Origin: an uncultured Synergistia bacterium
GTDB lineage: Bacteria; Synergistota; Synergistia; CAYRKT01
Assembly: GCA_964425005.1 (NCBI GenBank)
Contig: CAYRKT010000020.1
Location: forward strand, 1-23,993
Length of the DNA stretch: 23,993 nt
Direction: 5' to 3'
This document shows positions 2,695 to 23,459 of this stretch, piece by piece. The notes under the pieces were generated by a model, which saw only the letters and a list, made by a program, of their open reading frames with translations, was not told the DNA's origin and made no database searches. Position 1 is the first letter of the stretch, and each line of letters begins with the position of its first letter. Position numbers and translations under genes: made by a program.

Positions 2695-2698
2695 GGAC

Positions 2699-3181: not shown

Positions 3182-3188
3182 AGGTGCT

Positions 3189-5733: not shown

Positions 5734-7110
5734 ATGTCCTCCAGGAGGATAATTTACAGGGTGGACGACAAGCCTCCCCTGCCTATAATGATCCTGGCCG
5801 GCGCTCAGCACGTCCTCACCCTCTTTGGGGCCACCACGCTGGTGCCGCTGATATTCGGTCCTGCCATGGGCATGTCCCAGGAACAGATAGCCTTCTTCAT
5901 CTCCTGCGTCTACCTGGCCATGGGGGTGGCCACGCTGATCCAGACCCATCCGGTCCTGGGATCCGGGCTTCCCATAGTCCAGGGCTCCAGCTTCAGCTTC
6001 ATACCTCCTGTGATGACGGTCATAGGGATGTACAGCGCGCAGGGGCCCAACGCGATCATGCAGTATCTCGGCGGTGGGCTTATAGTCGGTGGATTGGTGC
6101 TCTCTGCCATAGGTTACAGCGGTCTCATAGGGTACGTGCGCAGGGTCATAACGCCCGTGGTCATAGGCCCGACTATAATGGCCATAGGGTTCTCCCTGGC
6201 CAAGGTGGCGGTGGAGTTCAACGCCGCCAACTACTGGCCCGCCTCGCTCCTGGTGGTGGCTCTGGTCTTCTTCTTCAGCCTGATATCTAAGAACAAGTAC
6301 TTCAACATCTTCTCGGTGATCATGGCCATATCGATCACCTATCTGATATGTCTCTTTGCCTCCCTCTCCGGGATATTCGTGCCCGGGCATCCGGCCTACA
6401 TAGACCTCTCCAACGTGGCTAAGGCCCCCTGGTTCAGGTTCACCGGCATAGCCCCCTGGGGTGCGCCCAAGTTCAGCGTGGTGGCCATAAGCGCCCTGGC
6501 GGCGGGCTTCTTCGCGGTGATGATCGAGTCCATAGGGGACTACCACTCCTGCTCCTACGCCTCTGGGCTTCCCGATCCCAGCCCCAAGACCATAAGCAGG
6601 GGGATAGGGGCGGAGGGGCTCAACTGCGCCATAGCTGGATTGCTGGGCGGCGTTGGGACCACTTCCTACACCGAGAACATAGGGCTGATAGGGATAACCG
6701 GCGTGGCCTCCAGGTGGGTCGTGCGGACTGGGGCCATAATACTGATACTCATGAGCACCATAGGGAAGCTCTCGGCCCTCATAGCCACCATACCGAGCCC
6801 GATAATAGGCGGCGCCTACATATCGCTCTTCGGCGTGATAGGAGCCCTGGGGATCCAGGTTCTCATGAGGGCCGACATGGGCAGCCAGCGAAACGTCATG
6901 ATAGTGGGCTTCGCGTTCCTCATGTCCCAGGGGCTTCCCGGATGGGTGGAGGCCAACCAGAAGCTCTTCAGCGAGCTCGGCACCCTCGGCATGATGATAT
7001 GGGCTATCCTGAAGACCCCCATGGCGGTGGCTGGCATCTCCGCCGCCATATGGGACTCCCTGATCCCGGGGACGGACAAGGAGAGGGGCATCACCCCGAG
7101 GGAGGAGTAG
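5734..7110 (+). CDS. Nucleobase:cation symporter-2 (NCS2) family xanthine/uracil/uric-acid permease
   Basis: 458 aa polytopic membrane protein. Its motifs are typical of the PbuX/UraA family (GAQHVLTLFGATTLVPLI, QGSSFSFI, ESIGDY). The stop is TAG at 7108-7110. Confidence 0.85.
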   Translation: MSSRRIIYRVDDKPPLPIMILAGAQHVLTLFGATTLVPLIFGPAMGMSQEQIAFFISCVYLAMGVATLIQTHPVLGSGLPIVQGSSFSFIPPVMTVIGMYSAQGPNAIMQYLGGGLIVGGLVLSAIGYSGLIGYVRRVITPVVIGPTIMAIGFSLAKVAVEFNAANYWPASLLVVALVFFFSLISKNKYFNIFSVIMAISITYLICLFASLSGIFVPGHPAYIDLSNVAKAPWFRFTGIAPWGAPKFSVVAISALAAGFFAVMIESIGDYHSCSYASGLPDPSPKTISRGIGAEGLNCAIAGLLGGVGTTSYTENIGLIGITGVASRWVVRTGAIILILMSTIGKLSALIATIPSPIIGGAYISLFGVIGALGIQVLMRADMGSQRNVMIVGFAFLMSQGLPGWVEANQKLFSELGTLGMMIWAILKTPMAVAGISAAIWDSLIPGTDKERGITPREE

Positions 7111-7169: not shown

Positions 7170-7194
7170 GCAACTTAGTTGCATTATCTTGCAA
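7168..7194 (+). promoter_or_regulatory. Three direct TTGCA(A/T) repeats at about 10-11 bp spacing upstream of the MoeA-like gene
   Basis: TTGCAA occurs at 7168, TTGCAT at 7179 and TTGCAA at 7189. The repeats lie between the terminator and the SD AAGGAG (7193-7198). No canonical -10 could be aligned; they may form a promoter or an activator/repressor site. Confidence 0.3.
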
Positions 7195-7202
7195 GGAGCG
7201 AG

Positions 7203-8237
7203 GTGTGTCTTTCGGTGAAGCTCACTTCCGTGGGTTTGGAGGAAGCGGTGGGGATGTCCCTGGCCCACGATCTGACCGAGATAGACGTGGACGGAGGCTT
7301 CAAGGGGGCCAGGTTCAAGAGGGGACACGTGGTGAGGCCCGAGGACCTGGAGGTCTTGAGGAGGATGGGGAAGAGCAGGCTTTGGGTCGTCGAGCTGGAG
7401 GAGGGGGAGCTACACGAGGACGAGGCCTCTAGGGCTTTGGCCTCTGCTTTGGCGGGGGAGGGCGTCAGGGTGGAGGGTCCGGGCGAGGGCAAGTGCGGCT
7501 TCTTCGCGGAACGCTTTGGGCTTTTGGTCTACGATCCGTCCTCGGTGGACGCGATCAACGCCTTCGGCGTATGGGCCCTGGTTCTGCTTCCTCCCTTCGT
7601 ACCGGTGAGGGCGGGGGAGCTCGTGGGCTCGATCCGTCCTTTCGGATTGGTCGTGGATAGGGCCTCGTTGGAGGCGACCCTGTCGGTCGTCTCTCCCCTG
7701 TCAGTTAGGGCCTTCGAGCCCCTTAGGGTAGCCCTGGTCACCACCGGCGCGGAGCTGCTCGAGGGCAGGAAGAGGGATGCCTTCAGGCCGAAGCTGGAGG
7801 AGAAGATATCCCCCCTGGGCGGCGTCTTCCTAGGACAGGAGGTGGTCGGGGACGACATCGAGGCCATCGCCTCCAGCGCCAGGTCCTTCCTGGAGAGGGG
7901 GGCAGACCTTATCATATTCACGGGCGGCATGAGCGTGGACGCAGACGATCTCACCCCTAAGGCCATATCGTCCCTGGCGGACGAGGTGTTGTTCAGGGGG
8001 GTGCCCGTGATCCCAGGCAACATGTTGATGCTGGCGAGGAGGGGTAAGGCCTACCTGGTGGGAGCCCCAGCGTGCGTGGTCTTCGAGCGCAGGACCTCCC
8101 TGGACCTGCTCCTGCTCAGGCTGTTCGCTGGGCTGCCTCCTAAGGCGGAGGAGGTAAGGCGATGGGGGGTGGGGGGGTTTTGTAGCAGGTGCGAGGCGTG
8201 CGCGTTCCCTCGCTGCTCCTTCGCCGCCAGGCCTTGA
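7203..8237 (+). CDS. MoeA-like molybdopterin-binding protein (truncated molybdopterin molybdotransferase family, lacks C-terminal domain 4)
   Basis: LRVALVTTGAELL and ADLIIFTGGMSVDADDLT match the MoeA domain-3 (MoCF biosynthesis) signatures VRVALFSTGDEL and VISSGGVSVGEADYT. The N-terminus has an MoeA-like LEEAxGxxLAxDL segment. The preferred start is GTG at 7203 after AAGGAG; the track's TTG at 7179 is also possible. The C-terminal 49 nt overlap the next gene, and the tail is Cys-rich. Confidence 0.6.
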   Translation: MCLSVKLTSVGLEEAVGMSLAHDLTEIDVDGGFKGARFKRGHVVRPEDLEVLRRMGKSRLWVVELEEGELHEDEASRALASALAGEGVRVEGPGEGKCGFFAERFGLLVYDPSSVDAINAFGVWALVLLPPFVPVRAGELVGSIRPFGLVVDRASLEATLSVVSPLSVRAFEPLRVALVTTGAELLEGRKRDAFRPKLEEKISPLGGVFLGQEVVGDDIEAIASSARSFLERGADLIIFTGGMSVDADDLTPKAISSLADEVLFRGVPVIPGNMLMLARRGKAYLVGAPACVVFERRTSLDLLLLRLFAGLPPKAEEVRRWGVGGFCSRCEACAFPRCSFAARP

Positions 8238-8665
8238 GCTGGAAGGAGGTTCTGAGGGGGCTGGGCCTCAGGTCCACGCGGCCGAGGCTCCTGGTGCTGA
8301 GCCTGCTGGAGTTGGAGGGCAGACCCATGTCCCCTAGCGAGCTGTCCTCCTTTTTAGAGGGAGCGGTGGACAGGGTCACGGTCTACAGGGTCCTGAGCAG
8401 CTTGAAGGAGGCTGGGCTCCTCCACAAGGTGGTGGGTAAGGACGGGGTTTCAAGGTTCTCCTTGAACCACCTGAGGTCCGCCAGGTGCGAGGGGGGACAT
8501 CCCCATTTCCTCTGCGAGGAGTGTGGTAGGATGTTTTGCCTTAGGAGCGAGGGCATACCTCGCGTTAGGGCGCCGCAGGGCTTTAAGGTCAGGGGCAAAC
8601 AGCTTCTTCTGTATGGTATCTGCGGTGAGTGTGGTAGGACGAAAGATTTGCGAGAGGGCAGGTGA
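8189..8665 (+). CDS. Fur family transcriptional regulator (Fur/Zur/PerR-like)
   Basis: A winged-helix N-terminus (LRSTRPRLLVLSLL...SPSELS...VDRVTVYRVLSSLKEAGLL) is followed by the metal-site pattern GHPHFLCEECG...GICGECG (H-x-H-x2-C-x2-C ... C-x2-C). The start is GTG at 8189; an in-frame TTG at 8234 is an alternative. Confidence 0.7.
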   Translation: MRGVRVPSLLLRRQALSWKEVLRGLGLRSTRPRLLVLSLLELEGRPMSPSELSSFLEGAVDRVTVYRVLSSLKEAGLLHKVVGKDGVSRFSLNHLRSARCEGGHPHFLCEECGRMFCLRSEGIPRVRAPQGFKVRGKQLLLYGICGECGRTKDLREGR

Positions 8666-8672
8666 TCCGTTC

Positions 8673-9476
8673 ATGTCCACGGCGAGGGAGGAATCGGTTT
8701 TCCTCAAGCTGGCCGAGGATCTGGCCAGAGGGCAGAAGGGTATACTGGCGATGGTGGTGAGGAGCGAGGGGTCTGCCCCCAGGAACGTGGGCGCCTGCAT
8801 GTGGATAAGGCCCGACATGTCCATAGAGGGCACCGTGGGCGGTGGCGAGCTCGAGCACAGGGTGATGCGGGAGGCCAAGGCTATGTTCGAGGAGGGCAGG
8901 CCCGAGAGCCTAATGGGGATGGATCTGGTAGAGGGTGCCTCGGGAATGCTCTGCGGAGGCAGGGTTGAGGTCTTCCTCAAGACGCTGGGATCCTCCGACG
9001 AGCTCTTGGTATTCGGTGGAGGCCACGTGGGGAGGGCCGTGGCCAAGCTGGGGGTATTCCTGGGCTTCGACGTGGTAGTTTGGGACGATCGGCCGGAGTT
9101 CTGCGACGTCTCAGAGCTGGGGGCCAGGGGCATATGCTCGCCTCTAGAGAGCTTCTTCGAACACCACCCACCGCTGAGCCCCAGGAGTTACGTCGTCATA
9201 TGCACCAGAGGGCACGCCATGGACGCGAACGTGGTGGAGATGCTCAAGGACTCAAATCCCGCCTACATAGGGATGATAGGCTCAAGGGCCAAGGTGGCCG
9301 CCCTGCGGGAGAAATTGCTGGAGAGGGGGGTCCCCAAGGAGCACCTCGACCGCATATATCAGCCCATAGGGTTGACCATCGGTGCTGAGACCCCGGAGGA
9401 GATAGCTCTGTCCATAATGGCGGAGATAGTGGCCGTGAGGAGGGGTAAGGATGTTTCCTCTCTTCGCAAGTGGTAG
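8673..9476 (+). CDS. xdhC: XdhC/CoxI family xanthine dehydrogenase accessory (Mo cofactor insertion) protein
   Basis: ATG at 8673 (MSTAREESVFLKLAEDLARGQKGILAMVV...). It carries an XdhC N-terminal domain and an XdhC Rossmann domain (LLVFGGGHVGRAVAKLG...IGMIGSRAKV). The track's 8523 start is an upstream in-frame extension. Confidence 0.85.
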   Translation: MSTAREESVFLKLAEDLARGQKGILAMVVRSEGSAPRNVGACMWIRPDMSIEGTVGGGELEHRVMREAKAMFEEGRPESLMGMDLVEGASGMLCGGRVEVFLKTLGSSDELLVFGGGHVGRAVAKLGVFLGFDVVVWDDRPEFCDVSELGARGICSPLESFFEHHPPLSPRSYVVICTRGHAMDANVVEMLKDSNPAYIGMIGSRAKVAALREKLLERGVPKEHLDRIYQPIGLTIGAETPEEIALSIMAEIVAVRRGKDVSSLRKW

Positions 9477-10197
9477 GTCGATAGCATATTCGCTTTTAGC
9501 CGCCTTGTTGCCCGCTTGCTTGCTGCCTACGGCCTCCTTCGCCGAGGTTTTGGTGGGTTCGGCCGCGGGGGTTAGACAGCTTGTGGACGAAGCGGTGGAG
9601 CATTTCAAGGACTCGAAGGGCGTTGTGGTCTCCGCGTCTTATAGCTCCTCCGGCAAGCTCTTTCAGCAGATCTTATCCGGCGCCCCCTTCGACGTGTTCG
9701 TCAGCGCTCATCCCTCCTGGGTGGACCGGCTAGAAAAGGGGGGAGTGAAGCTACTGCGCAGGGATTGGGCTGAGCTGGACACCGTGGTTTGGTCCGTCAA
9801 GGAGGGTTTCGGCAGGATCTCCTCTGTCCTTGAGGGGAAGGGCGTTTACGCCACGGTCGACCCCTCCGTTGGTCCCTCCGGCGAGATGGCCGTTAAGTTC
9901 CTTAAGGACAGGGGGGTTTACGAGGACCTGATCTCGAGGAAAAGGCTGGTCTTCCTGCCCGATACCACAAGGGTCGTGCTGGCCGTGAGATCGGGCGCTG
10001 TGGACGGAGCCCTCCTAGCGGCTGTCGCCGTCAGGTCCCTGGAGGGGGAGTCGGAGGTCCTGCCGGGTTACTCCCTGGTGGCGACGGTGGCGCTCCTCTC
10101 GCTGGAGAAGGAGGAGGCCAGGTCCTTCTTCGATTTCATGTTCTCCAAGTCCTTCAGGGTATCGCTGATAAAGCTCGGCGCGAGGCCTCTCTTCTAG
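9451..10197 (+). CDS. modA: Molybdate ABC transporter periplasmic substrate-binding protein
   Basis: ATG at 9451 after GAGGAGGGGTAAGG. It has an N-terminal signal peptide with a possible lipobox (LLPAC). The ModA-like body contains VVVSASYSSSGKLFQQILSGAPFDVFVSA. It overlaps the xdhC 3' end by 26 nt. Confidence 0.85.
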   Translation: MFPLFASGRSIAYSLLAALLPACLLPTASFAEVLVGSAAGVRQLVDEAVEHFKDSKGVVVSASYSSSGKLFQQILSGAPFDVFVSAHPSWVDRLEKGGVKLLRRDWAELDTVVWSVKEGFGRISSVLEGKGVYATVDPSVGPSGEMAVKFLKDRGVYEDLISRKRLVFLPDTTRVVLAVRSGAVDGALLAAVAVRSLEGESEVLPGYSLVATVALLSLEKEEARSFFDFMFSKSFRVSLIKLGARPLF

Positions 10198-10208
10198 GAG
10201 GGTGAGCT

Positions 10209-10853
10209 TTGGGGGAAGCTCTCTGGTTGTCCGTTAAGGTTTCGTTGGTCTCGCTTCCGGCGGTGTTCCTGGTGGGCCTCGCCTTGGGCTTCCTCTTGAG
10301 CCGGGGTCCGAGGTTTCTGGCCGTGCCGATCTCTTACGCCCTGCAGCTCGCCATGATACTTCCCCCCTCCGTCCTGGGGCTCTACTTGCTTACGGCCCTC
10401 GGCAGCGCTCCCTGGGGTATCGGGAGGAAGCTGCTCTTCTCTTACCACGCCTGTGTGCTTGCAGCCTTCGTGAGCGCTCTGCCCATAATGGTTCAGTTCT
10501 CCAGGGCGGCCTTCATGGGCATCCCAGCCTCGCTGGAGGAGGCCGCTATGGTCCTGGGCCGGCAGAGGTGGGAGGTGTTCTTCAAGGTCCTTCTACCTAT
10601 AGCCAGGCCTAAGCTCATCTTGGGCATCGCGATGGCAGGCGTCAGGGCCATGGGGGATTTCGGCCTGACCCTCACCATAGCCGGCAACATCCCCGGCAGA
10701 ACCCAGACTCTCCCCCTCTACGTCTTCAGCAGGGCCGAGGTGCTGGACATGCGGGGTGCCCATCTGGCCTCCCTGGTCTTGCTCCTTTTGGGCTTGGCTT
10801 CGGTTTTGATGTTATCTCGCCTGGAGGGCGAAAAGCGTGAGCTTCATCCTTGA
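10209..10853 (+). CDS. modB: Molybdate ABC transporter permease
   Basis: TTG start at 10209, 7 nt after AGGAGGG. It carries the ABC type-1 permease signature EEAAMVLGRQRWEVFFKVLLP with 5-6 TM segments. Confidence 0.85.
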   Translation: MGEALWLSVKVSLVSLPAVFLVGLALGFLLSRGPRFLAVPISYALQLAMILPPSVLGLYLLTALGSAPWGIGRKLLFSYHACVLAAFVSALPIMVQFSRAAFMGIPASLEEAAMVLGRQRWEVFFKVLLPIARPKLILGIAMAGVRAMGDFGLTLTIAGNIPGRTQTLPLYVFSRAEVLDMRGAHLASLVLLLLGLASVLMLSRLEGEKRELHP

Positions 10854-11937
10854 CGTGGAGGTGGAGCACCGCAAAGGTTCTTTCGCCCTCTCGGCCCGCA
10901 TGAGGGTTAGCGCCCCCATCTCGGTGGTGTTCGGTCCTAGCGGCTCCGGCAAGAGCACGCTGCTCAGGGTCTTGGCGGGTTTAGAGAGGGCTAGCGGAAG
11001 GTGCCTGATATCGCTCAAGGGCAGGGTCCTGGTGGATTCGGAAAGGGGCGTTTTCGTGGAGCCACAGAGGAGGAGTATTTCCTTGGTCTTCCAGGACCTG
11101 GCGCTCTTTCCCAACATGACCGTCCTGGAGAACCTCCTCTTCGCCCTCCCCAGGTCCGCGAGGGGGCTAAAGCGATCCACTGATCTGGCGCTGGAATGGC
11201 TCTGCAGGTTCGGGTTGAACGGTTTCGAGGACAGGTACCCGAGTCAGCTGTCCCGGGGGCAGAGGCAGCGAGTGGCCCTGGCCAGGGCGATCATGTCCGA
11301 GCCGGACCTGCTGTTGTTGGACGAGCCCTTTAGCTCCCTGGATGGCCCCATGAGGGTTAACCTCAGGAGGGAGCTGATAAAGCTGCAGAGGGAGAAGGGT
11401 ATACCCATGATCTACGTGTCCCATCACCTGGACGATGTGGTGGAGCTGGGGGAGGAATCGTTCTTCATGGAGAGCGGCAGGCTGGTGGCTGTGCTGGACA
11501 GGAGCAAGCTCTGTCGCTCCCCATCTCCGGAGTGGGGGCGGCACATCCTGGATAGCTTCGGCAACGTACTGGAGGGACTTCTCTTGCCCGGAGAGGGGGG
11601 CTATCGCTTGTTCGAGGGGGAGGGTTTCAGGTTTCTGGTCAAGGGTGGCGAGGGTTTAGGCGCCTCTTTGCTGTTCGTCCCCCCGAGCGATCTGAAGCTG
11701 ATCTACCCGGACTTACCCTTGAGCTACCCCCTGAGCTGCAACCTGGTGGAGGGGGAGATAGAGGAGGTTAGGGAGGCCTCCTCCTCTCGTTTTTTGTTGA
11801 TCAGGAGCGGTTGCAAGCTGTGGAGGGCTGAGCATCACAGGAGTAGCTACGCCAGGTTGAACCTCGGGGTGGGGAAGAGGATCCGGTTCTCTTTCATGCC
11901 TGACGGTGCCAGCGTGTTTCTGAAGGGTGGGGCTTGA
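10837..11937 (+). CDS. modC: Molybdate ABC transporter ATP-binding protein with C-terminal TOBE/Mop-like domain
   Basis: Walker A GPSGSGKST, the ABC signature LSRGQRQRVALARA and Walker B LLLLDEP are all present. A C-terminal extension of about 130 aa is typical of ModC. The start is GTG at 10837, overlapping the modB stop. Confidence 0.85.
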   Translation: MSFILDVEVEHRKGSFALSARMRVSAPISVVFGPSGSGKSTLLRVLAGLERASGRCLISLKGRVLVDSERGVFVEPQRRSISLVFQDLALFPNMTVLENLLFALPRSARGLKRSTDLALEWLCRFGLNGFEDRYPSQLSRGQRQRVALARAIMSEPDLLLLDEPFSSLDGPMRVNLRRELIKLQREKGIPMIYVSHHLDDVVELGEESFFMESGRLVAVLDRSKLCRSPSPEWGRHILDSFGNVLEGLLLPGEGGYRLFEGEGFRFLVKGGEGLGASLLFVPPSDLKLIYPDLPLSYPLSCNLVEGEIEEVREASSSRFLLIRSGCKLWRAEHHRSSYARLNLGVGKRIRFSFMPDGASVFLKGGA

Positions 11938-13012
11938 GTTGAGGTTCGGCGCGATAGTGCTGGCCGCGGGTGCGGGCAGGAGATTAGGGACGCCCAAGGC
12001 CCTGGCCCAGCTGGGCGGGGAGAGCTTCCTCGAGAGGGCGGTTAAGGCCCTCAGGGGTGGGGGCGTCTCGAAGATCCTGGTGGTCGGCGGTTGCTCCTTC
12101 GACGAGGTCGAGAGAGGGGCCTCGAGGCTAGGCGTTTCGGTGGTCTTCAACCCTAACTGGGAGGGGGATATGTTCTCCTCGGTTAAAGTTGGGGTGGGAG
12201 CGATGGGGGATGAGGTCGACGCCTTCTTCGTCCTGCCCGTGGATCATCCCTTGGTTAGGCCCTGCACCATCAGGTCTCTGGCGCTCGCCTGGAGGGGAAG
12301 GCCTCTGTACCTGGTCCCCACCTTCGCGGGCAGAAGAGGTCACCCCCCGCTCATCTCCTCCTCCCTAAAGCTTTACCTCCTGGAGCACGAGGGAGAAGGC
12401 GGCTTGTCGGCCTTTCTGCGGCGTTTCGAGGGAAGGGAGGTCCCCACCTGGGACAAGGGCGTGGTGATGGGCGTCAACTCGAAGGAGGATCTGCGCGAGG
12501 CTCAGAGGATGTTGGGGAGGGCCAATAGACCGACCGAGGAGGAGTGCCTCGAGCTGCTCTCGCTCCTTGGGGCTTCGGATAGGATAGTGAGGCATTGTCT
12601 AAAGGTCAAAGAGGTCGCCATGGGGATAGCCCGTTTCGTGGAGGGCGTGGACCTGGACCTCCTGGAGAGCGCCTCCCTGCTCCATGACCTGGCGAGGGGT
12701 AGGAGCAGGCACGACGCGTTGGCCCATCGTTTCCTCCGTTGCCTCGGTTTGGTTGAGGTGGCAGAGGTCGTCCTGCGCCACATGGAGCTGCTCGATCCGG
12801 GATCCTCCTCCTGGGAACAGAAGATACTGTTTCTGGCCGATAAGCTGGTGGTGGAGGACGAGCTGGTTGGCCTGGAGGCGCGCCTCCATAGGGCCCTCTC
12901 CAGGGTCGGCGACGCGGAGGGCTTGGCATCTGCTCGAAGGCGAATCGGCCAGGCCGAGGCGATCCTCGAGGAGCTCAGGTCTAGGGGTTTCGACCTCGGG
13001 GCGCTCCTGTGA
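11927..13012 (+). CDS. MobA/MocA-like molybdenum cofactor nucleotidyltransferase fused to a C-terminal HD phosphohydrolase domain
   Basis: The N-terminus AIVLAAGAGRRLGTPKALAQLGG...LPVDHPLV is a MobA-like NTP-transferase fold, probably a MocA-type cytidylyltransferase for the MCD cofactor of xanthine-dehydrogenase-family enzymes. The C-terminal half carries an HD motif (LLHDLAR...H...D). The start is GTG at 11927, overlapping the modC stop; TTG at 11939 is an alternative. Confidence 0.8.
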   Translation: MGLELRFGAIVLAAGAGRRLGTPKALAQLGGESFLERAVKALRGGGVSKILVVGGCSFDEVERGASRLGVSVVFNPNWEGDMFSSVKVGVGAMGDEVDAFFVLPVDHPLVRPCTIRSLALAWRGRPLYLVPTFAGRRGHPPLISSSLKLYLLEHEGEGGLSAFLRRFEGREVPTWDKGVVMGVNSKEDLREAQRMLGRANRPTEEECLELLSLLGASDRIVRHCLKVKEVAMGIARFVEGVDLDLLESASLLHDLARGRSRHDALAHRFLRCLGLVEVAEVVLRHMELLDPGSSSWEQKILFLADKLVVEDELVGLEARLHRALSRVGDAEGLASARRRIGQAEAILEELRSRGFDLGALL

Positions 13013-13034
13013 GGAGGGCGATCGGGAAGGGTGG

Positions 13035-13060
13035 CCTGGGGCGAGATGGCTCGCCCCAGG
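13035..13060. terminator. Bidirectional stem-loop between convergent genes
   Basis: CCTGGGGCGAG-ATGG-CTCGCCCCAGG forms a perfect 11 bp stem with a 4 nt loop. It lies in the 54 bp gap between the converging mocA-HD and encapsulin genes. Neither strand has a clear U-tract. Confidence 0.4.
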
Positions 13061-13066
13061 CCGGCC

Positions 13067-13852
13067 TCACTCGAACAGGACTATGGCGTCGGGGTTAGCC
13101 ACGTGGAAGGTGAAGGTCTCCGTGAAGTAGAGGTGGACCTCCGTCTCGGAGCTGCAACAGTAGCCTATGGTCACGTCCTGCCCCAGCACGATCCTCATGT
13201 TCTCGCTGGAGGGCGATAGGAGGATGCCCTTCTCCAACCTGGGGCAGAGGACGACCTCCGAGACCCCCGCGTCCTCCGCCAGCTCCATGAGGCTCTCCGT
13301 GCTCTTGGAGAAGGCCTCAGCCCACAGGGCTGGGTTGACCACCAAGACGTATGGCCCCTTGACCCCCTTGGATATCATAGCGCCCATCGCCTTGAACAGC
13401 TGTCTGGTCAAGCTCTGAGGGGTTCCCTCTATGGGCATCCTGACCGGGGCTAACCTCTCGAGGCCCGCTATGCAGGCCTCGTCCAGCCCCTTCAATATGG
13501 CCCTGTCCTCGAACTCCGCCAGCTCCAGCGCAGCCCTCTCCATGGAGGAGAAGTCGACCACGAAGTTACCCCTGTAGAGGTTGTCCAGCTCCCAGAGGCT
13601 CAGCTTGAAGGGCGCCCTCACCTCCACCAGAGGGAGGACGGCCCGAACGCCCCAACCCAGGGCATCCGGTGGGTTCTTGAGGTTGTTCAGGCTTCCCAGC
13701 GGGTAGGCGTTGTAGTCGAAGCCGTAGGGGCCCTCGACCTCCAGGAATTGCCTGCAGAAGAGGTTGCTCGTCAGTACCTCCCTGGCCCTTGACTCTATCT
13801 CCGCCCAGCCGCGCTCCCCTATGGGGGCTAGCTCTCTCCTGAAGAGGTCCAT
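13067..13852 (-). CDS. Family 1 encapsulin nanocompartment shell protein (HK97-fold, linocin M18-like)
   Basis: The start is at the internal Met MDLFRRELAPIG (ATG at 13852, SD AGGAGGTGA upstream). The sequence matches remembered Thermotoga maritima encapsulin blocks closely: LWELDNLYRGNFVVDFSSMERAALELAEFEDRAILKG, GPYVLVVNPALW, LGQDVTIGY and YFTETFTFHVANPDAIVLFE. The track's longer 314 aa frame is an upstream extension. Confidence 0.9.
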   Translation of the reverse strand: MDLFRRELAPIGERGWAEIESRAREVLTSNLFCRQFLEVEGPYGFDYNAYPLGSLNNLKNPPDALGWGVRAVLPLVEVRAPFKLSLWELDNLYRGNFVVDFSSMERAALELAEFEDRAILKGLDEACIAGLERLAPVRMPIEGTPQSLTRQLFKAMGAMISKGVKGPYVLVVNPALWAEAFSKSTESLMELAEDAGVSEVVLCPRLEKGILLSPSSENMRIVLGQDVTIGYCCSSETEVHLYFTETFTFHVANPDAIVLFE

Positions 13853-13866
13853 GTGCCCTTCACCTC

Positions 13867-14208
13867 CTAGCGCTTGATCTTGCCTATGCCGAGCCCAGAG
13901 GGAGAGCTGGAACTGCCTTGGGAGCCCTCCTCTATGGCCAGCAGATCTCCTTCGGTGAAGAGATAGGTCCTGAGCGCCTTGTCCCAACCTGGCATGTGGC
14001 GCCTGAGCCACTCCAGAAGCATCGCGGCGTGCTCCATCTCCTCCTCCTTGTTGTGCCTGACTACCCCCTTTATCGTGGGGTCAGAGGTAGTGGCCTCCCT
14101 CTGGTGATACCAGGAGACGGCTTCGATCTCCTCCTTGAGGCTGGTGAGCGCCCTGACGTAGTCCACGTCCTCCTTGGACATCATCTCCGCGGGGTAGTGG
14201 AGATCCAT
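13867..14208 (-). CDS. Encapsulated ferritin-like protein (EncFtn/Flp cargo) with C-terminal encapsulin targeting peptide
   Basis: The EncFtn core motifs are present: EEIEAVSWYHQR...HNKEEEMEHAAMLLEWLRR...LRTYLFTEG. The C-terminus ends in a Gly/Ser linker plus GLGIGKIKR, which resembles the family-1 cargo-loading peptide (GSLxIGSLK-like). It sits 14 nt upstream of the shell gene on the same strand. Confidence 0.85.
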   Translation of the reverse strand: MDLHYPAEMMSKEDVDYVRALTSLKEEIEAVSWYHQREATTSDPTIKGVVRHNKEEEMEHAAMLLEWLRRHMPGWDKALRTYLFTEGDLLAIEEGSQGSSSSPSGLGIGKIKR

Positions 14209-14239
14209 CAGCTCTTTTCCCCCTTTCTTAGAGTTTTTG

Positions 14240-14258
14240 ACGGATCCGTTGTTATAAT
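14240..14258 (+). promoter_or_regulatory. Extended -10 promoter candidate (TGtTATAAT) for the GGDEF gene
   Basis: GTTGTTATAATTT lies in the 95 bp divergent intergenic region. TTGACG sits upstream with a short (10 nt) spacer, so the promoter is probably dependent on the extended -10. Confidence 0.35.
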
Positions 14259-14270
14259 TTTAGCACAGGT
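14250..14270 (-). promoter_or_regulatory. Extended -10 promoter candidate (TGcTAAAAT on - strand) for the EncFtn-encapsulin operon
   Basis: The reverse complement of 14250-14262 reads TGTGCTAAAATTA. A TTCAAA -35-like element lies about 18 nt upstream on the - strand. The pair is divergent and partly overlapping with the + strand candidate. Confidence 0.3.
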
Positions 14271-14303
14271 TCGATCTCCGGTTTTGAAACGGGGGCAAGG
14301 GAT

Positions 14304-15563
14304 TTGAGGAGATGGATCTACCTGGGGGCGATGGTCCTCGCGCTCTGGGGCGTATCCATGAAGAACTTCCTTTTCTTTCACACGGCGGTGGAGTTCATGG
14401 CGATATTCACCGCCTTCTTCATCGCCCTCTTGGGTTTGTCCACCCGATCCTTCGCCAAGAACAAGCTCTTCGCCAAGCTGGGAAGCCTCTACCTCTTCGT
14501 CGGCGTGGTGGACTTCTTCCACACCCTGGCCTTCAAGGGGATGGGGGTCTTCCCTCATTTCACGGCGAACGAGCCCACCCAGCTGTGGATATTGGGCAGG
14601 TCCGTCGAGGTCTTGGGGCTCCTCCTCTTGTTCGCCGCGCCGAACCTATCCCTCGAGTCAGCGTCGGTGGCCTTCGCCCTCTCGTCGGCGCTGGGGGTCT
14701 GGTCGGTGTTCGAGGGGGTCTTTCCCGACTGCTTCGTCGAGGGGGAGGGACTCACCACCTTCAAGGTGGTCTCCGAGTACGCCCTCGTGGCGGTGGTGGT
14801 ACTCCTCCTCGCCAGGCTAAAGAGCTCCGAGGAGGCTGAGCTGGTGGAGTTCAGGGGGACCCTCTTTCCTGCCCTCCTCTTCACCGCCCTGGCCGAGCTC
14901 TCCTTCACCCTCTACGAGGACGTGTACGGTTTCTACATAGTGGTGGGTCACCTTTTCAGGTTCCTCTCCTACTACACGGTGTTCGAGGGGCTCCTGCTGC
15001 AGGCTCTGCTTAACCCCGTCAGGGTGCTCTCCTCTCAGCTTCTGGATGAGAAGAGGCGTTACGAAGTCCTGGCCTACCTGGACCAGCTCACGGGCCTTGA
15101 AAACAGGCACTTCTTTAACAGGTGGGTTGAGGAGATGGAAAAAGACCCGTCCACCTTCGAGAGGAACCTGCCCGTGGCCCTGGTCCTCCTGGACGTGGAC
15201 GGCTTCAAGAGCATAAACGACACCTATGGGCACGTCCAGGGGGATGCCGTCTTGGCGTTCGTGGGGAGGTGCATCAGGTCCTCCGTGAGGAGGGGGGATT
15301 TGGCCGTGAGGTTCGGCGGCGACGAGTTCTTGCTGGTCCTGCCTAACTGCTCCGAGGAGCAGGCCCTCGAAGTGGTGGTGAGGATCCAGAGCGACATAAG
15401 GGCGAAGAACTCCTTCCCCCACGCCATCTCCCTGAGCTTCGGCGTGGCCTCCCTCGCGAGCAGCGACTGCGGGAAGCTCAGGGACGCGCTGATCGCCGCC
15501 GACAAAGCCCTCTACGAGATGAAGCGCAGCAAGGGGTGGGTCCCCCGCGTCAGAACCGGCTAA
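14304..15563 (+). CDS. Membrane-anchored GGDEF-domain diguanylate cyclase with N-terminal multi-TM sensor domain
   Basis: The N-terminal roughly 230 aa are hydrophobic with 6-7 predicted TM helices. The C-terminal GGDEF domain has an intact active site (RFGGDEFLL) and an upstream RxxD-like region. The start is TTG at 14304 or ATG at 14331. Confidence 0.8.
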   Translation: MRRWIYLGAMVLALWGVSMKNFLFFHTAVEFMAIFTAFFIALLGLSTRSFAKNKLFAKLGSLYLFVGVVDFFHTLAFKGMGVFPHFTANEPTQLWILGRSVEVLGLLLLFAAPNLSLESASVAFALSSALGVWSVFEGVFPDCFVEGEGLTTFKVVSEYALVAVVVLLLARLKSSEEAELVEFRGTLFPALLFTALAELSFTLYEDVYGFYIVVGHLFRFLSYYTVFEGLLLQALLNPVRVLSSQLLDEKRRYEVLAYLDQLTGLENRHFFNRWVEEMEKDPSTFERNLPVALVLLDVDGFKSINDTYGHVQGDAVLAFVGRCIRSSVRRGDLAVRFGGDEFLLVLPNCSEEQALEVVVRIQSDIRAKNSFPHAISLSFGVASLASSDCGKLRDALIAADKALYEMKRSKGWVPRVRTG

Positions 15564-16026
15564 ACGCCCTCTTTGCCCCCTCGACGCCCAGAGCTCCGAT
15601 CAGGGCCAGGCTCAGCGCGGCTGTGAGCTGGTCCGCTAGCCCTCCCGTCCTGAAGAGCCTGAGCCCCACCCTCCTGTTCGAGAGGACGGAGAGCTTGATG
15701 CCGCCCTTGGTCAGGCTGTCCAGGAAAAGGTGGGAGAGGTATCCGAGCGAAACGGCTAGCCCATGCCAGAGGCCCAGGATCAGCGCCGATGCCAGGGAGA
15801 TCGAGAGGGCGAAGTCCAGGGAGTGGCTTAGGCCCCTGTGCCCGAACATCAGGTTGAGCGCCCTGGAGAGCCTGGGGAATTTCCTCCCCACCTTGGTCGC
15901 CGTGCTGTCCAGGTCGGGGAGCAAAGAAGAGATGACGGCGAGCGACAGGAAGAAAAGGTCCTGAGCTGCGCCCTTCACCGAGACGGCGAGGGCCAGCCCG
16001 AAGAGCAGGTGCGTTCTCCCGGTCAT
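15550..16026 (-). CDS. DUF457/YdjM-like membrane-bound metal-dependent hydrolase
   Basis: The start is at the internal Met MTGRTHLLFGLALA (ATG at 16026, SD GAGGGGA 9 nt upstream). Taking the track's 16086 start would overlap msrBA. The protein has a conserved His-rich N-terminus and multiple TM segments. Confidence 0.7.
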   Translation of the reverse strand: MTGRTHLLFGLALAVSVKGAAQDLFFLSLAVISSLLPDLDSTATKVGRKFPRLSRALNLMFGHRGLSHSLDFALSISLASALILGLWHGLAVSLGYLSHLFLDSLTKGGIKLSVLSNRRVGLRLFRTGGLADQLTAALSLALIGALGVEGAKRAFSRF

Positions 16027-16058
16027 GGTCTGATGTCCCCTCGGCCTGATGATTTCCT

Positions 16059-16997
16059 CTAGAAGACCTTTCTCCAGCGATGGCAATAAGGGGCCTCGCC
16101 GGTCTTATCGTAGTAATCCTGGTGGTAATCCTCCGCCAGGTAAAAGGTGGATGCCTCCCTCAGCTGGGTCGCCACCTTGTGCCCCATCTCCTTTAGCCTC
16201 TGGATCAACCTCTCGGCGACCTCCCTTTGCTCCTCGTCGGTGTAGAATATGGCGCTGAGGTACTGGGGACCGATGTCCGGACCCTGCCCGTCCTCCTGCG
16301 AGAAGTCGTGGATCTCGAAGAAATACCTCAAGATCTCCTCGACGGGCTTGTCCCCCTGGTAGATTACCTCCACAGTCTCCAGGTGGCCCGTCCTGCCGGT
16401 GCAGACCATCTTGTAGGTGGGGTTGGGGACGTGTCCGCCCATGTAGCCCACCCTGGTGTCCACCACGTAGGGGTGTCTTTTCATCAGGTGCTCCACGCCC
16501 CAGAAACATCCTCCCGCGAGGAATATCCTGTTTATCCTCGGCCTCTCCCCCTGCGGCAGGAAGCGCATGGACGCGGAGTTTACGCAGTGCCTTACGTTCT
16601 TAGGGGTAAAACCCTCCCCCTCGAAGACGTGGCCCAGGTGTGCCCCGCAGTAGGCGCAGGATATCTCGGTCCTAACGCCGTCCGGATCGGGGGATCTCCT
16701 TACAGCTCCCGGGATCTCGTCGTCGAAGCTGGGCCAACCGCAGCCGGAGTGGAACTTGTCCTCGCTTCGATATAGGGGTATCCCGCAGTTGTTGCATACG
16801 TAGATGCCCTTCTCGAAGTGGTCCACGTACTTGCCGGTGAAGGGCCTTTCGGTTCCCCTCTCGAACATCACCCATCTCTCCAGGTCGCTCAAGTCGTCCC
16901 TGAAGGGCTTTACCTTCAACGGAGCCACCTCCTCTCCCGCGGCGCACCACGCCATCGCCGCCGAAATCGAGATCACCAGGACGGCGAGCGCTCTCAT
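16059..16997 (-). CDS. msrAB: Secreted bifunctional peptide-methionine sulfoxide reductase (MsrB-MsrA fusion) with signal peptide
   Basis: An N-terminal signal peptide ([21 protein letters not shown]) is followed by an MsrB/SelR domain (CNNCGIPLY...CGWPSF...HLGHVF, Zn-binding CxxC pairs). The MsrA domain ([10 protein letters not shown]) comes after it. There is a 4 nt overlap with purE. Confidence 0.9.
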
Positions 16998-17509: not shown

Positions 17510-18624
17510 CTGCTGACGCTCCCCTTGACCTTCAGGGTCCTTCTAACCCTCTCGAGCTTTTCCTCCAGCTCCTCGTAGGTCTCAGCTAATACGGTCACGT
17601 GCCCCATCTTTCGGAAGGGAAAGACCTCCTTCTTGCCGTAGATGTGAACGTAGACCCCCTCCATCGAGAGGACCTCCTCCAGGCCGACGAAGAGGGGTTT
17701 GCCGTAGTGCCCTGGTTCGCTCACCAGGTTCCAGGTGGCGGCCAGGCTCGTCGTCCTGGGTGATCCCAGAGGCCATCCGCAGCACACCCTCACGAGTTGC
17801 TCGAACTGGCTGCAGAGGCAGGCCTCTATCGTGTAGTGCCCCGAGTTGTGCGGTCTGGGCGCTAGCTCGTTGAGCAAAACCCTCCCCCTTCTGTCCAAAA
17901 ATAGCTCGACTCCGAAGACCCCCACGCCCCTGAGGGCCTCCACCGACCTCCTAGCTATCCCCTCGGCCTCAGAGGCTATCTCGCTGCTCACCCTGGCTGG
18001 AGCCACGAGGGTGTTCATGAGCTTGAACCTGTCGTCGAAGGTCATCTCCACCGCAGGGTATACGGCGCAACTTCCGCCCTCGTCCCTTACGACTATCACC
18101 GCGAGCTCTTTGTCTATCTCCACGAACTCCTCCGCGTAGGAAGGCCCCTTTATAGCCCTCTCCAGGTCGGAGACCTCCCTCATCACCACGACGCCTCTGC
18201 CGTCATAGCCGCCCTTCCTCGACTTCTGCACCAGCGGCAGGCGATCCCTCAGGTCCTCCTCTGATCTCACCTCCCAGAAGGAGGGCATGGGTATTCCCGC
18301 CTCCCTCAGCACCGTCTTCTGGACTAACTTGTCCTGTATGATCTCCACCGCCTCCGGGTTTGGGACGACCCTTAAGCTCTCGGAGAGCTTCCTCAGCCCC
18401 TGGGGGCTGACGTTCTCGACGTCTATCGTTACGACGTCGCAGCCGCGGGCGAAGGAGAGCACGTCCCTCTCCGAGTCGACCCTGCCCAGCTGTTGTTCGG
18501 CCACAGCGGAGGCAGGACAGCCAGGAGTGTGGTCCAGCACCCTCACCCTCACCCCCATTCTCTGTGCCTCCAGGGCGGTCATCTTGGCCAGCTGGCCTCC
18601 GCCGAGAACGCCTATGGTCTTCAA
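17506..18624 (-). CDS. purK: N5-carboxyaminoimidazole ribonucleotide synthase
   Basis: An ATP-grasp protein: [15 protein letters not shown]...[17 protein letters not shown]...[11 protein letters not shown]. It has 4 nt overlaps with both neighbours. Confidence 0.9.
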
Positions 18625-19325
18625 TCCCCCTCTACCTCCTCCCGGATTTCAGGATGTTCCGCGAACTCGGTCATGTGCCTCCTGTACCTCAAGGGGACCT
18701 TGGACAGCTGAAGCCGTCTGTTCTCCCTCTCCTCCACGGCAACGCTGTGAAAGTAGCTCCTCCAGAGCCTCTGGAACAGGTTCTCTCCCTCAGAGGGCTT
18801 GAGCCCGGAGGCTTCCACCTCGACCATGGCGAATCGTCCGTCCTGTACCAGTACGGCTAGCCCCCTCCTCGTGTCGTGGATCAGCAACCTCTCGGACCTC
18901 ATGCGCCTGGCGAAGTGATAGCTGACGGGAGGGAGGACCTGATACCTGGGCTCGAAGGCCCCATACAGCAGGCCACAACCCATCTCCCTGAACCTGAGGA
19001 AGCCCTTGAACCTGTGGGCCTCCCTCTTCACTGCCCTGGAGACCTCGACCACGCGCCCGAAGATGTGGTGCAGCGGGTCGAAGAGGCGATGAGGCTCCGA
19101 GCGAGCTAGCTTGAGGAAGGCGATGGCGACCATCTCGAAGTTCTCCTCCTCGGATAGTACGTAGTGGTAGAGCACGTCCACCGCCTCCCTGGGGAGCTCG
19201 GAGAGGAGGCCCGTCAGGTCCTCCTCGAAGAGCAGAAGCTGCACCCTCCGCAGGAAGGCGGCCAGGAAGGGCCTGGGGGAAGGCTCAAATCTGCCCAAGG
19301 GGTAAGAGGAGCTGTCCGCCCTCAT
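18621..19325 (-). CDS. TIGR03915/DUF4130-like protein, obligate partner of the DNA-modification/repair radical SAM protein (no uracil-DNA-glycosylase fusion)
   Basis: 234 aa. It sits immediately downstream of the TIGR03916-type radical SAM gene and overlaps it by 41 nt. Its size and Arg/aromatic-rich character fit the partner family; the assignment rests mainly on the conserved gene-pair context. Confidence 0.65.
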   Translation of the reverse strand: MRADSSSYPLGRFEPSPRPFLAAFLRRVQLLLFEEDLTGLLSELPREAVDVLYHYVLSEEENFEMVAIAFLKLARSEPHRLFDPLHHIFGRVVEVSRAVKREAHRFKGFLRFREMGCGLLYGAFEPRYQVLPPVSYHFARRMRSERLLIHDTRRGLAVLVQDGRFAMVEVEASGLKPSEGENLFQRLWRSYFHSVAVEERENRRLQLSKVPLRYRRHMTEFAEHPEIREEVEGD

Positions 19326-20529
19326 CTTTGGAGAACTCCTCCCTCAGGTCTTCCCAGCTCTTCGCCCCGGACGGGTATCTACCCCCCAGCGTCACGAAGG
19401 GGCGGGCTCTCCTGAGCACGACGCCCAACCTCTTGAGGTCGAGCTCCGACAGGGTCGTCCACCTCCTGGCGCTGATTATCCTCCTGGCCGAGGTGGGGCC
19501 TATCCCTGGGACGCGAAGCAGCGTCTCGTAGTCCGCCGACATCACCTCGACGGGGAACAGGTGCAGGTTCCTCAGGGCCCAGTCCAGCTTGGGGTCCAGG
19601 TCCAGGGAGAGGTTCGGCCTCTTGGCGTCGACCAGCTCGTCCAGCTCAAAGCCGTAGAACCTCATGAGCCAGTCGGCCTGGTAGAGCCTGTGCTCCCGAA
19701 GCAGCGGCGGGGCCTGGGTGGGCAAGCGGGGGTCGTGGTTCACGGGGACGTAGGCGGAGTAGTAGACCCTCCTGAGGCTCAGCCTCTCGTAGAGCCTGCG
19801 GGATAGGAGCAGGATCTCCCTGTCGCTCTCGGGGGTGGCGCCGACTATGATCTGGGTCGACTGGCCCGTGGCCGCGAACTCACCGCCCCTCTCCTCCTTG
19901 GGCAGGGACAGAAGCCTGTGCAGCGTCCTCATGTGCCCCAGTATGCGGTCGAAGTCCTTGTCCGGGGCGAGGGCCTTCAGGGAGGATTCGGTGGGTAGCT
20001 CCAGGTTGACGCTTATCCTGTCGCACCATCGGGACGCCTCCTCTACGGTGGAGGGGCTGCTGCCCGGGAGGACCTTCATGTGGATGTAGCCTCGAAAGCC
20101 CATCTCGAGCCTGAGCGTCTTGGCGGTGGCTATCATTAGCTCCATGGTGTGATCAGGGCTAACCCAAACCCCCGAACTCAGGAAGAGCCCCTCTATGTAG
20201 TTCCTCCTGTATAGCTGATAGGTCAGGTGGGCGAGCTCCTTGGGGGAGAAGGCGGTCCGAAGCACGTCGTTGCTGGCCCTGTTCGCGCAGTAAGCGCAGT
20301 CGTTCTGGCACAGGTTGGTCATGAGGACCTTTAACAGCGAAACGCATCTGCCGTCAGCGCTCCAGGAGTGGCATATGCCCCACCTGGCGGCGCTCCCCAG
20401 CTGTCCCTTGGCCCCACGACGACTCGACCCGCTCGAGGCGCAGGAGACGTCGTACTTAGCCGCCGAGGCCAGTATCGGAAGCTTCTCCTGCAGACTGAGC
20501 CTTGAGGCCACCTTGGTCAGGCTCGACAT
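19285..20529 (-). CDS. Putative DNA modification/repair radical SAM protein (TIGR03916-like) with C-terminal helix-hairpin-helix
   Basis: The N-terminus reads EKLPILASAAKYDVSC and the radical SAM cluster motif is CQNDCAYC (Cx3Cx2C). The C-terminal HhH is LRVPGIGPTSARRIISAR. The protein is 414 aa. Confidence 0.8.
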   Translation of the reverse strand: MSSLTKVASRLSLQEKLPILASAAKYDVSCASSGSSRRGAKGQLGSAARWGICHSWSADGRCVSLLKVLMTNLCQNDCAYCANRASNDVLRTAFSPKELAHLTYQLYRRNYIEGLFLSSGVWVSPDHTMELMIATAKTLRLEMGFRGYIHMKVLPGSSPSTVEEASRWCDRISVNLELPTESSLKALAPDKDFDRILGHMRTLHRLLSLPKEERGGEFAATGQSTQIIVGATPESDREILLLSRRLYERLSLRRVYYSAYVPVNHDPRLPTQAPPLLREHRLYQADWLMRFYGFELDELVDAKRPNLSLDLDPKLDWALRNLHLFPVEVMSADYETLLRVPGIGPTSARRIISARRWTTLSELDLKRLGVVLRRARPFVTLGGRYPSGAKSWEDLREEFSKDEGGQLLLPLGQI

Positions 20530-20572: not shown

Positions 20573-20581
20573 TGATATAAT
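20573..20581 (+). promoter_or_regulatory. Extended -10 promoter (TGATATAAT) for the class II aldolase gene
   Basis: TGATATAAT is a perfect extended -10 about 45 nt upstream of the GTG start at 20626. It is divergent from the radical SAM operon. Confidence 0.45.
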
Positions 20582-23450: not shown

Positions 23451-23459
23451 TGGTATAAT
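23451..23459 (+). promoter_or_regulatory. Extended -10 promoter (TGgTATAAT) for ssrA
   Basis: TGGTATAAT lies 16-24 nt upstream of the mature tmRNA 5' end. This is consistent with a short precursor processed by RNase P. Confidence 0.45.

Follow-up and report, generated by a model that had tools for sequence, protein, structure and literature searches.

The window analysed here is a 23,993-nucleotide stretch of DNA, positions 1 to 23,993 of contig CAYRKT010000020.1 from an uncultured Synergistia bacterium. Near its middle, two adjacent minus-strand genes encode an encapsulated ferritin-like protein (EncFtn) and a family 1 encapsulin shell protein. The EncFtn gene occupies 13867–14208 (113 amino acids, stop codon included) and lies directly upstream of the shell gene at 13067–13852 (261 amino acids, stop codon included), from which it is separated by an intercistronic spacer of 14 nt (13853–13866). 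We accept the ATG at 13852 as the start of the shell gene, giving a protein that begins MDLFRRELAPI; it is preceded at 8 nt by the Shine-Dalgarno (SD) sequence GGAGGTG (13867–13861, minus strand), which overlaps the EncFtn stop codon. The mechanically defined open reading frame (ORF) is longer, running from a GTG over 13067–14011, and would overlap the EncFtn gene by 145 nt. Gene calls on six independent metagenomic contigs with the identical shell protein all use ATG 13852. The EncFtn gene has a putative SD of its own, GGGGG at 14219–14223 on the minus strand, 10 nt upstream of its ATG. This element is kept in a sister species, whose version of the locus was found in another sample on a 2,072-bp contig (L023) and encodes proteins 85% (shell) and 92% (EncFtn) identical to those of the window.

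The shell protein scores far above the curated cutoffs of two encapsulin profiles, with 211.3 bits against PF04454 (Linocin_M18; cutoff 24.3; profile positions 1–253 of 253) and 222.9 bits against the NCBIfam equivalog NF041155 encap_f1 (cutoff 100; positions 2–261 of 261). When searched against the Protein Data Bank (PDB) with phmmer, it aligns end to end with Thermotoga maritima encapsulin (E about 3e-62, 213 bits), and the best sequence match is an engineered T. maritima pore mutant (7LIS). Other T=1 shells follow, with 131.7 bits for Haliangium ochraceum, 123.6 for Brevibacterium linens and about 100 for the mycobacterial proteins. The matches to T=3 and T=4 shells are weak (36–42 bits for Myxococcus xanthus EncA, 26.7 for Quasibacillus thermotolerans). 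We also built an AlphaFold2 model of the shell from a 55-sequence alignment; its mean predicted local distance difference test (pLDDT) value is 91.4 and its predicted template-modelling score (pTM) 0.88. A Foldseek search of the PDB places this model on T. maritima encapsulin (7kq5/3dkt) with a template-modelling (TM) score of 0.94 and a root-mean-square deviation (rmsd) of 1.8–1.9 Å. Across T=1 shells, the TM score is 0.88–0.94 and the rmsd 1.8–2.9 Å, compared with 0.77–0.83 and mostly 4–7 Å (minimum 3.7 Å) for natively T=3 or T=4 families, namely M. xanthus EncA, Q. thermotolerans and Bacillus methanolicus. All 50 of the matches listed are encapsulin shells or cages engineered from encapsulins. 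The protomer is thus predicted to adopt an HK97-type fold, and its length of 261 residues, together with a structural match that is closer to T=1 shells than to T=3/T=4 ones, suggests that it assembles as a T=1 cage.

The cargo was placed in the EncFtn family in the initial annotation, and the profile searches agree: the protein scores 122.1 bits against PF22277 EncFtn-like (cutoff 27) and 132.3 bits against the NCBIfam model TIGR04535, ‘encapsulin-associated ferritin-like protein’ (cutoff 125), and the NCBIfam models of the EncB type (EncB/C) score it under their cutoffs. Its PDB matches are the EncFtn proteins of H. ochraceum and Rhodospirillum rubrum (E 4.5e-29 to 1e-26). The alignment with R. 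rubrum EncFtn extends over about 95–100 residues without gaps, at an offset of +5. In the R. rubrum protein, Glu32, Glu62, His65 and Tyr39 make up the ferroxidase centre, as established by crystallography and mutagenesis (He et al., PMC5012862), and a site formed by Glu31 and Glu34 has been described as well (PMC5012862). The gap-free alignment equates the first four with E27, E57, H60 and Y34 of the window protein, and the metal entry site Glu31/Glu34 plus Trp38 with E26, E29 and W33; none of the seven residues varies across the 36 homologues aligned. Trp38, which PMC5012862 does not name, is counted here as part of the entry site. The ligand codons fall within 14029–14130 on the minus strand (E27 at 14130–14128, E57 at 14040–14038, H60 at 14031–14029), a segment to which E26, E29, W33 and Y34 also belong. 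The di-iron Glu/His ligands E27, E57 and H60 are therefore in place in the alignment. With 50–60% identity to the characterised EncFtns, the protein would be expected to form a decameric, annular assembly with ferroxidase activity.

The EncFtn C-terminus reads ...EEGSQGSSSSPSGLGIGKIKR. It consists of a flexible Ser/Gly-rich linker, GSQGSSSSPS (residues 95–104; 13897–13926, minus strand), and a targeting peptide, GLGIGKIKR (residues 105–113; 13870–13896, minus strand). Among the 36 homologues, the linker region differs in length and composition and the C-terminal consensus is LGIGKxKx; the Thermotoga cargo ends in DLGIRKL in the same alignment. The published FLP-TP targeting consensus is L(F)-X-V(I)-X-X-L(I), in which X1 is usually G, T or S (PMC11202242), and the segment L106-G-I108-G-K-I111 conforms to it. 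The sister-species EncFtn is identical over its final 11 residues, and its linker reads GASAGSSAPS instead. A fixed C-terminus attached to a drifting linker is what would be expected of a docking peptide that functions at the end of a flexible tether. Linker and targeting peptide had both been named from the sequence at the outset, and they are borne out by the translation, the homologue consensus and the published consensus. No other ORF of the window has a C-terminus resembling a targeting peptide, indicating that within the window the system is of the simple two-gene type.

The locus is intact and under selection. It recurs in ENA, JGI and Logan assemblies, on contigs as long as 66 kb, and the window itself is the reverse complement of Ga0105160_1000311 (JGI 3300009585); recovery from several independent assemblies shows that it is not an assembly artefact. 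Comparison with the sister species gives nonsynonymous-to-synonymous rate ratios (dN/dS, Nei-Gojobori) of 0.055 for EncFtn and 0.154 for the shell at dS 0.5–0.8, so that both genes are under purifying selection. The GC content around the operon, 0.59–0.63, is like that of the rest of the window and gives no compositional sign of recent acquisition. Three plus-strand ORFs antisense to the operon (13918–14307, 13167–13418 and 13031–13219) were considered and set aside as high-GC artefacts, the family matches and the low dN/dS being in the minus-strand frames.

Encapsulins and phage capsids have the HK97 fold in common (PMC8346489), raising the question whether the locus is a prophage remnant in which an HK97-type capsid gene happens to adjoin an unrelated small gene. 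We consider this explanation scarcely credible. The shell exceeds the NF041155 cutoff more than twofold, its best structural matches are all encapsulins, and it has no PHROGs match at E≤1e-3. Defence-family and phage-family profiles gave zero matches, and the neighbourhood consists of metabolic or signalling genes and includes no terminase, portal or protease gene. Furthermore, the gene directly upstream encodes a cognate cargo that bears a targeting peptide, and the GC content is typical of the window. We conclude that encFtn and enc, in this order, very probably constitute a functional, self-contained bicistronic operon for a classical (family 1) encapsulin nanocompartment that mineralises iron. 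The complete two-gene locus described in the initial annotation thus stands, with both genes intact, on the same strand and 14 nt apart, and with mineralisation assigned by homology. As far as the sequence can tell, nothing in it contradicts this reading.

The way in which such a compartment would work can be outlined from the homologous systems of T. maritima, R. rubrum and H. ochraceum (PMC5012862, PMC11202242, PMC8346489). Sixty copies of the 261-residue HK97-fold shell protein would self-assemble into a T=1 cage of about 24 nm. EncFtn would form ring-shaped decamers with di-iron ferroxidase centres at the dimer interfaces, built by E27, E57, H60 and Y34. Carried on the Ser/Gly linker, GLGIGKIKR would dock EncFtn in a hydrophobic cleft that faces the shell interior, and the cargo would be packaged as the cage assembles. 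Fe(II) would then pass through the shell pores and be oxidised by EncFtn, which is presumed unable to store iron itself, leaving a ferric mineral to accumulate in the shell lumen. Transcription of the operon probably runs from an extended -10 promoter in the spacer upstream of EncFtn to a GC-rich hairpin immediately after the stop codon of the shell gene. The biology of compartments of this kind, in which EncFtn oxidises iron and the shell stores the mineral, is already established, and encapsulins with Flp cargo are the second-largest family 1 cargo class, found in 23 bacterial phyla (PMC8346489). The locus adds to them a divergent, apparently intact EncFtn-type member from an uncultured lineage, a contribution of modest importance.

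Mineral deposition would be expected both to buffer iron and to curb Fenton chemistry. In an oxygen-sensitive organism, the same machine may instead serve chiefly in stress defence, consuming O2 or H2O2 with Fe(II) as a sacrificial reductant and sequestering the product rather than keeping a mobilisable iron reserve. Flp encapsulins are treated in the literature as possibly dual in role (PMC8346489, PMC11202242). The window has an anaerobe-like gene content (a DVU_1551-family protein, radical SAM genes, and a xanthine dehydrogenase (XDH)-family enzyme with XdhC), and a gene for an MsrB-MsrA fusion is found 1.9 kb from the operon. The Msr gene, however, belongs to a separate operon beyond the opposite-strand GGDEF gene, no PerR box or other peroxide-regulon signal was found, and sequence alone does not separate defence from reserve. 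The anaerobe-like content and the nearby Msr gene make us lean slightly towards stress protection over an iron reserve; that defence is the chief role is a possibility we hold only tentatively.

The reading of the locus as an encapsulin operon comes with some caveats. The shell is divergent: it is 38% identical to the Thermotoga shell (101/266, BLASTP), with about 48% identity over residues 1–120 and about 30% over the remainder as counted on the alignment, and its best match outside its own species is 41% identical in a word-seeded, non-exhaustive search of 5.8 billion proteins. The initial description of the shell as closely similar to T. maritima encapsulin is therefore overstated. The divergence includes specific motifs. 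In place of the G/H-Y-P-L loop there is T-ESL (residues ~183–190), shorter by one to two residues, and S187 stands where at least 90% of the aligned sequences have Pro. SSEN takes the place of RGGD (residues ~214–218), with N218 at a position where at least 90% have Asp, and IGYExH has become IGYCCSS (residues ~230–236), which contains adjacent cysteines at 232–233. The GYPL-type loop presumably lines the five-fold pore in T. maritima. Given the atypical S187, N218 and IGYCCSS, the pore properties or the assembly of the window shell could differ. A scan for paired sigma-70 -35/-10 elements and T-tract terminators between 12900 and 14500 found none, leaving the transcript boundaries to be placed by inference. 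Finally, the lineage appears to be of an anaerobe type, which raises the question of the physiological oxidant for the ferroxidase. The sister-species shell also lacks the G/H-Y-P-L, RGGD and IGYExH motifs. The departures in the shell are variant detail, not a change of kind. The overall divergence of the proteins could be of interest to those prospecting encapsulins for new pore chemistries or thermostable cages.

Among characterised systems, the closest is that of T. maritima (shell TM0785, or maritimacin, PDB 3DKT and 7KQ5; cargo TM0786). It has the same cargo-then-shell order with an identical 14-nt spacer, its shell is the best match of the window shell in both sequence and structure and belongs to the same T=1 length class, and its cargo is 61% identical. 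The two differ, apart from overall shell identity, in the loop (HYPLEK in Thermotoga, the shorter T-ESLME in the window), in RGGD versus SSEN and in IGYEDRE versus IGYCCSS. Their targeting peptides are also of different types, LGIRKL in Thermotoga and LGIGKxK, as in Bacteroidota-like homologues, in the window, and the genomic neighbours of the Thermotoga pair are wholly unlike those found here. The R. rubrum EncFtn (Rru_A0973, 5DA5) and the H. ochraceum complex (5N5F, 7OE2) have the ferroxidase-centre ligands and the entry site in common with the window EncFtn, and in all three a disordered linker leads to a C-terminal localisation sequence. The C-terminal extension is shorter in the window protein, which has 113 residues compared with 131–140 for the full-length R. 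rubrum and H. ochraceum proteins. Host lineage and shell differ as well, the H. ochraceum shell scoring 131.7 bits against 213 for T. maritima. More remote are M. xanthus EncA/EncBCD and the Q. thermotolerans IMEF system, which belong to the same family 1 superfamily and likewise mineralise iron within a shell. Unlike the window system, they have larger T=3/T=4 shells, to which the window shell shows the weak sequence matches and TM scores of 0.77–0.83 given above, and other cargo types: the window cargo is under the cutoffs for EncB/C, and IMEF is a four-helix bundle.

Upstream of EncFtn, the operon diverges from the plus-strand gene of a MASE3-GGDEF membrane diguanylate cyclase. The intergenic region (14209–14303) is exactly 95 bp from the EncFtn ATG at 14208 to the GGDEF TTG at 14304, the length stated in the initial annotation. 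This figure depends on the TTG start, as one gene caller chose ATG 14331 instead. In the alignment with the sister species, a conserved GGDEF peptide, MRRW...YLGA, extends from the TTG onward and nucleotide conservation falls just upstream of it; the TTG is preceded by GGGGG at 8 nt in the window and by GGAGG at 9 nt in the sister species. We accept TTG 14304 because conservation begins at that codon and an SD lies upstream.

The only AT-rich patch of the spacer is a core, TGTTATAATTTTAGCA, at 14250–14265. It contains two opposed, overlapping motifs that resemble extended -10 elements: TGTTATAAT at 14250–14258 on the plus strand, directed towards GGDEF, and TGCTAAAAT at 14265–14257 on the minus strand, directed towards EncFtn. 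Each conforms to TGnTAnAAT, the pattern of an extended -10 element, and the two -10 hexamers have 2 bp (14257–14258) in common. The motif is rare in the 24-kb window but strongly over-represented, with TGNTANAAT observed four times against 0.42 expected, a number reached in 0 of 100 shuffles. Two of the copies make up 14250–14265 and the others are at 20573–20581 and 23451–23459; all four are in or near intergenic regions. The sister species retains both motifs of the core, as TGTTATAAT and TGGTAGAAT, and the adjacent intergenic bases diverge. The overlapping motifs are probably the two divergent promoters, which would give EncFtn a leader of about 42 nt, and their -10 elements overlap in such a way that the promoters could compete for RNA polymerase. 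The motif data further suggest that the housekeeping promoters of this organism may depend on extended -10 elements and lack a recognisable -35 box. The conserved overlapping pair, if it is indeed shared with the diguanylate cyclase gene as a promoter, would be the mildly novel element of the locus.

The initial annotation had proposed a search of this divergent promoter for Fur and PerR boxes, which came out negative. With up to three mismatches, 14209–14303 has no match to the canonical 7-1-7 Fur box (TGATAATNATTATCA), and the PerR box (TTATAATNATTATAA) has no match in the spacer or elsewhere in the window; a lineage-specific operator may be present. The sole Fur-box-like match of the whole window falls inside a gene, at 6743, and was equalled in 11 of 100 shuffles. 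Two candidate sites in the spacer were rejected. TTATAAT is a single half-site, for which a -10 element is the better reading, and ACGGATCCGT, a palindrome of 10 bp in the leader of EncFtn that was considered as an operator, is not conserved in the sister species. An Rfam scan of 12900–14500 at E≤1 returned just four sub-threshold chance matches to eukaryotic or viral families, and no riboswitch or known leader.

At the other end of the operon, the shell gene converges on an NTP-transferase gene. The 54 bp between their stop codons hold an inverted repeat with 18-nt arms, and a GC-rich hairpin (13028–13067) overlaps the shell stop codon. The hairpin has a perfect 13-bp stem (13033–13045 paired with 13050–13062) and a 4-nt loop, without a U tract; over 71 nt, its fold has a minimum free energy of -38.4 kcal/mol (z = -4.56). 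It was not picked up by the scan for T-tract terminators. At the equivalent position in the sister species (L023, 1899–1932) there is a hairpin that differs in sequence, likewise has no U tract and gives z = -4.42. These features point to a conserved structural role, for example as a bidirectional terminator or a 3'-end stabiliser.

Does the position of the operon between these two neighbours carry meaning? A scan of genome contigs with the shell gave top matches of 39% identity, and EncFtn is directly upstream of the shell, at a short spacing, in 7 of the 12 genome loci found in this way and in all four of the annotated contexts, the latter being the closest EncFtn homologues on long contigs with Pfam annotation (L019–L022). 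A tblastn comparison of 19 window proteins with the 12 genome loci recovered just the EncFtn-shell pair and generic ABC-ATPase similarity, and homologues of GGDEF, the molybdenum (Mo) cluster, Fur or Msr occur within 10 kb of the shell in none of the 12. The four annotated contexts likewise have no neighbours in common with the window, and each is different: an Fe-S oxidoreductase with Pyr_redox_2 and Molybdopterin domains, rubrerythrin and a LysM protein (L019); carboxyltransferase and lactamase_B genes (L020); HU and peptidase M32 genes (L021); and, in Thermotoga, thiamine biosynthesis genes (L022). Only the sister species, among the loci compared, keeps the whole arrangement, including the convergent NTP-transferase gene, as its short evolutionary distance alone would predict. 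We conclude that the EncFtn-encapsulin pair is a compact two-gene module that is placed differently in each lineage examined; its context in the window is real, with no demonstrated functional meaning. The layout between a Mo cluster and a GGDEF gene was thus described correctly at the outset, but the significance implied by calling it unusual does not hold up, as the arrangement is conserved in one sister species only.

We asked whether the divergent arrangement could nevertheless tie iron sequestration to signalling by cyclic di-GMP (c-di-GMP). The encapsulin operon and the MASE3-GGDEF gene would then share a control region, through exclusive occupancy by RNA polymerase or through one regulator, and iron sequestration and c-di-GMP would be controlled together, either reciprocally or jointly. 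The overlapping, opposed -10 motifs, their rarity in the window and their retention with the arrangement in the sister species speak for such coupling. However, this conservation extends just to 85% protein identity, a distance at which synteny is expected anyway, and the NTP-transferase gene is kept too. Two MASE3-GGDEF homologues, at 46% and 41% identity, are not adjacent to an encapsulin; their upstream neighbours are an HDOD-HD protein and a TRAP transporter. The homologue nearest in sequence (47%) is at a contig end, with its upstream side unreadable. None of 11 more distant EncFtn-encapsulin loci has a GGDEF neighbour. No conserved palindromic operator was found, the one palindrome having been lost in the sister species, and no paper in the searched literature names both an encapsulin and a diguanylate cyclase. 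Divergent gene pairs with a short spacer also commonly arise by chance. We therefore regard the coupling as unlikely. A more elaborate version is less probable still and, in our view, a long shot: the 16-bp core at 14250–14265 would act as an exclusive switch between c-di-GMP synthesis and the iron-sequestering compartment, and S187, N218 and the cysteine pair at 232–233, at the presumed five-fold pore, would give altered, possibly redox-sensitive gating. If true, the coupled divergent promoters would be a new regulatory link from c-di-GMP synthesis to iron sequestration, the present evidence for which is a two-species footprint.

The other neighbour raises the parallel question of whether the compartment serves the adjacent Mo-hydroxylase system, by protecting against reactive oxygen species that an XDH-type enzyme produces, by supplying or sequestering Fe for the Fe-S clusters of that enzyme, or under the control of a Fur-family protein from the Mo operon. 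The two systems are physically adjacent, also in the sister species, and the Fur-family gene is 4.4 kb away inside the Mo operon. On the other hand, the orientation is convergent and a strong hairpin separates the stop codons, so that the units are not co-transcribed. No Mo, Fur or XDH gene is near EncFtn-encapsulin pairs in the other lineages examined, and the enc promoter region is the one found above to lack Fur (≤3 mismatches) and PerR boxes. A large survey of encapsulin neighbourhoods makes no mention of molybdenum (PMC8346489). A dedicated role in Mo-hydroxylase function is accordingly very improbable. We favour the operon as a self-contained unit: the Mo cluster and the GGDEF gene are transcription units separate from it, and their adjacency is lineage-specific.

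The Mo cluster itself is one long plus-strand cluster that lies to the left of the operon and converges on it. It contains the FAD, 2Fe-2S and Mo subunits of an XDH-family hydroxylase (1819–5546), a xanthine/uracil permease (5734–7110), a MoCF_biosynth-domain protein (7179–8237), a Fur-family protein of 143 amino acids (8234–8665, PF01475), whose start overlaps the MoCF_biosynth stop, XdhC (8673–9476), and ModA, ModB and ModC (9451–11937). The last gene encodes a MobA-like NTP transferase with an HD domain (11927–13012; PF12804, PF01966) and has a GTG start that overlaps the end of modC; its product scores 311.7 bits against the NF045665 DVU_1551 family, just below the cutoff of 315. The term ‘molybdoenzyme maturation operon’ used in the initial annotation thus identifies a convergent Mo unit that is indeed present, but is too narrow for a larger cluster that also includes hydroxylase subunits, permease, Fur and ModABC. 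The presence of a Fur paralogue inside an operon for a Mo-hydroxylase, MoCF, XdhC and ModABC is an unusual location. This protein is under all NCBIfam Fur/Zur/PerR/Irr equivalog cutoffs (best 44.6 versus 220 bits) and retains HPHFLCEEC and CGEC motifs. Possibly it is a metalloregulator that is related to Mo/W or specific to the operon.

On the divergent side, the MASE3-GGDEF gene (14304–15563, plus strand) encodes 419 amino acids with matches to PF17159 (206.6 bits) and PF00990 (126.9 bits), and its translation has an intact GGDEF motif and an RxxD I-site. Beyond it, the minus strand carries genes for YdjM, the MsrB-MsrA fusion, PurE, PurK, a DUF4130 protein and a radical SAM protein. The YdjM membrane protein gene (15550–16086) converges on the GGDEF gene, their 3' ends overlapping by 14 nt. 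The MsrB-MsrA fusion (16059–16997, minus strand, 312 amino acids) begins with a hydrophobic segment, which suggests that it may be exported.

The lineage is sparsely represented in databases: in word-seeded searches, the best identities outside the species cluster are 64% for EncFtn, 41% for the shell and 47% for MASE3-GGDEF. The best named relatives of the neighbouring genes are in Synergistota and Caldatribacteriaceae metagenome-assembled genomes, at 41–44%. LptC/LptD_N-like genes and an adjoining ABC-ATPase gene suggest that the organism is a diderm. The radical SAM gene (414 amino acids) and the DUF4130 gene form a pair on the minus strand (18621–20529) directly upstream of purK-purE, an odd operon partner.

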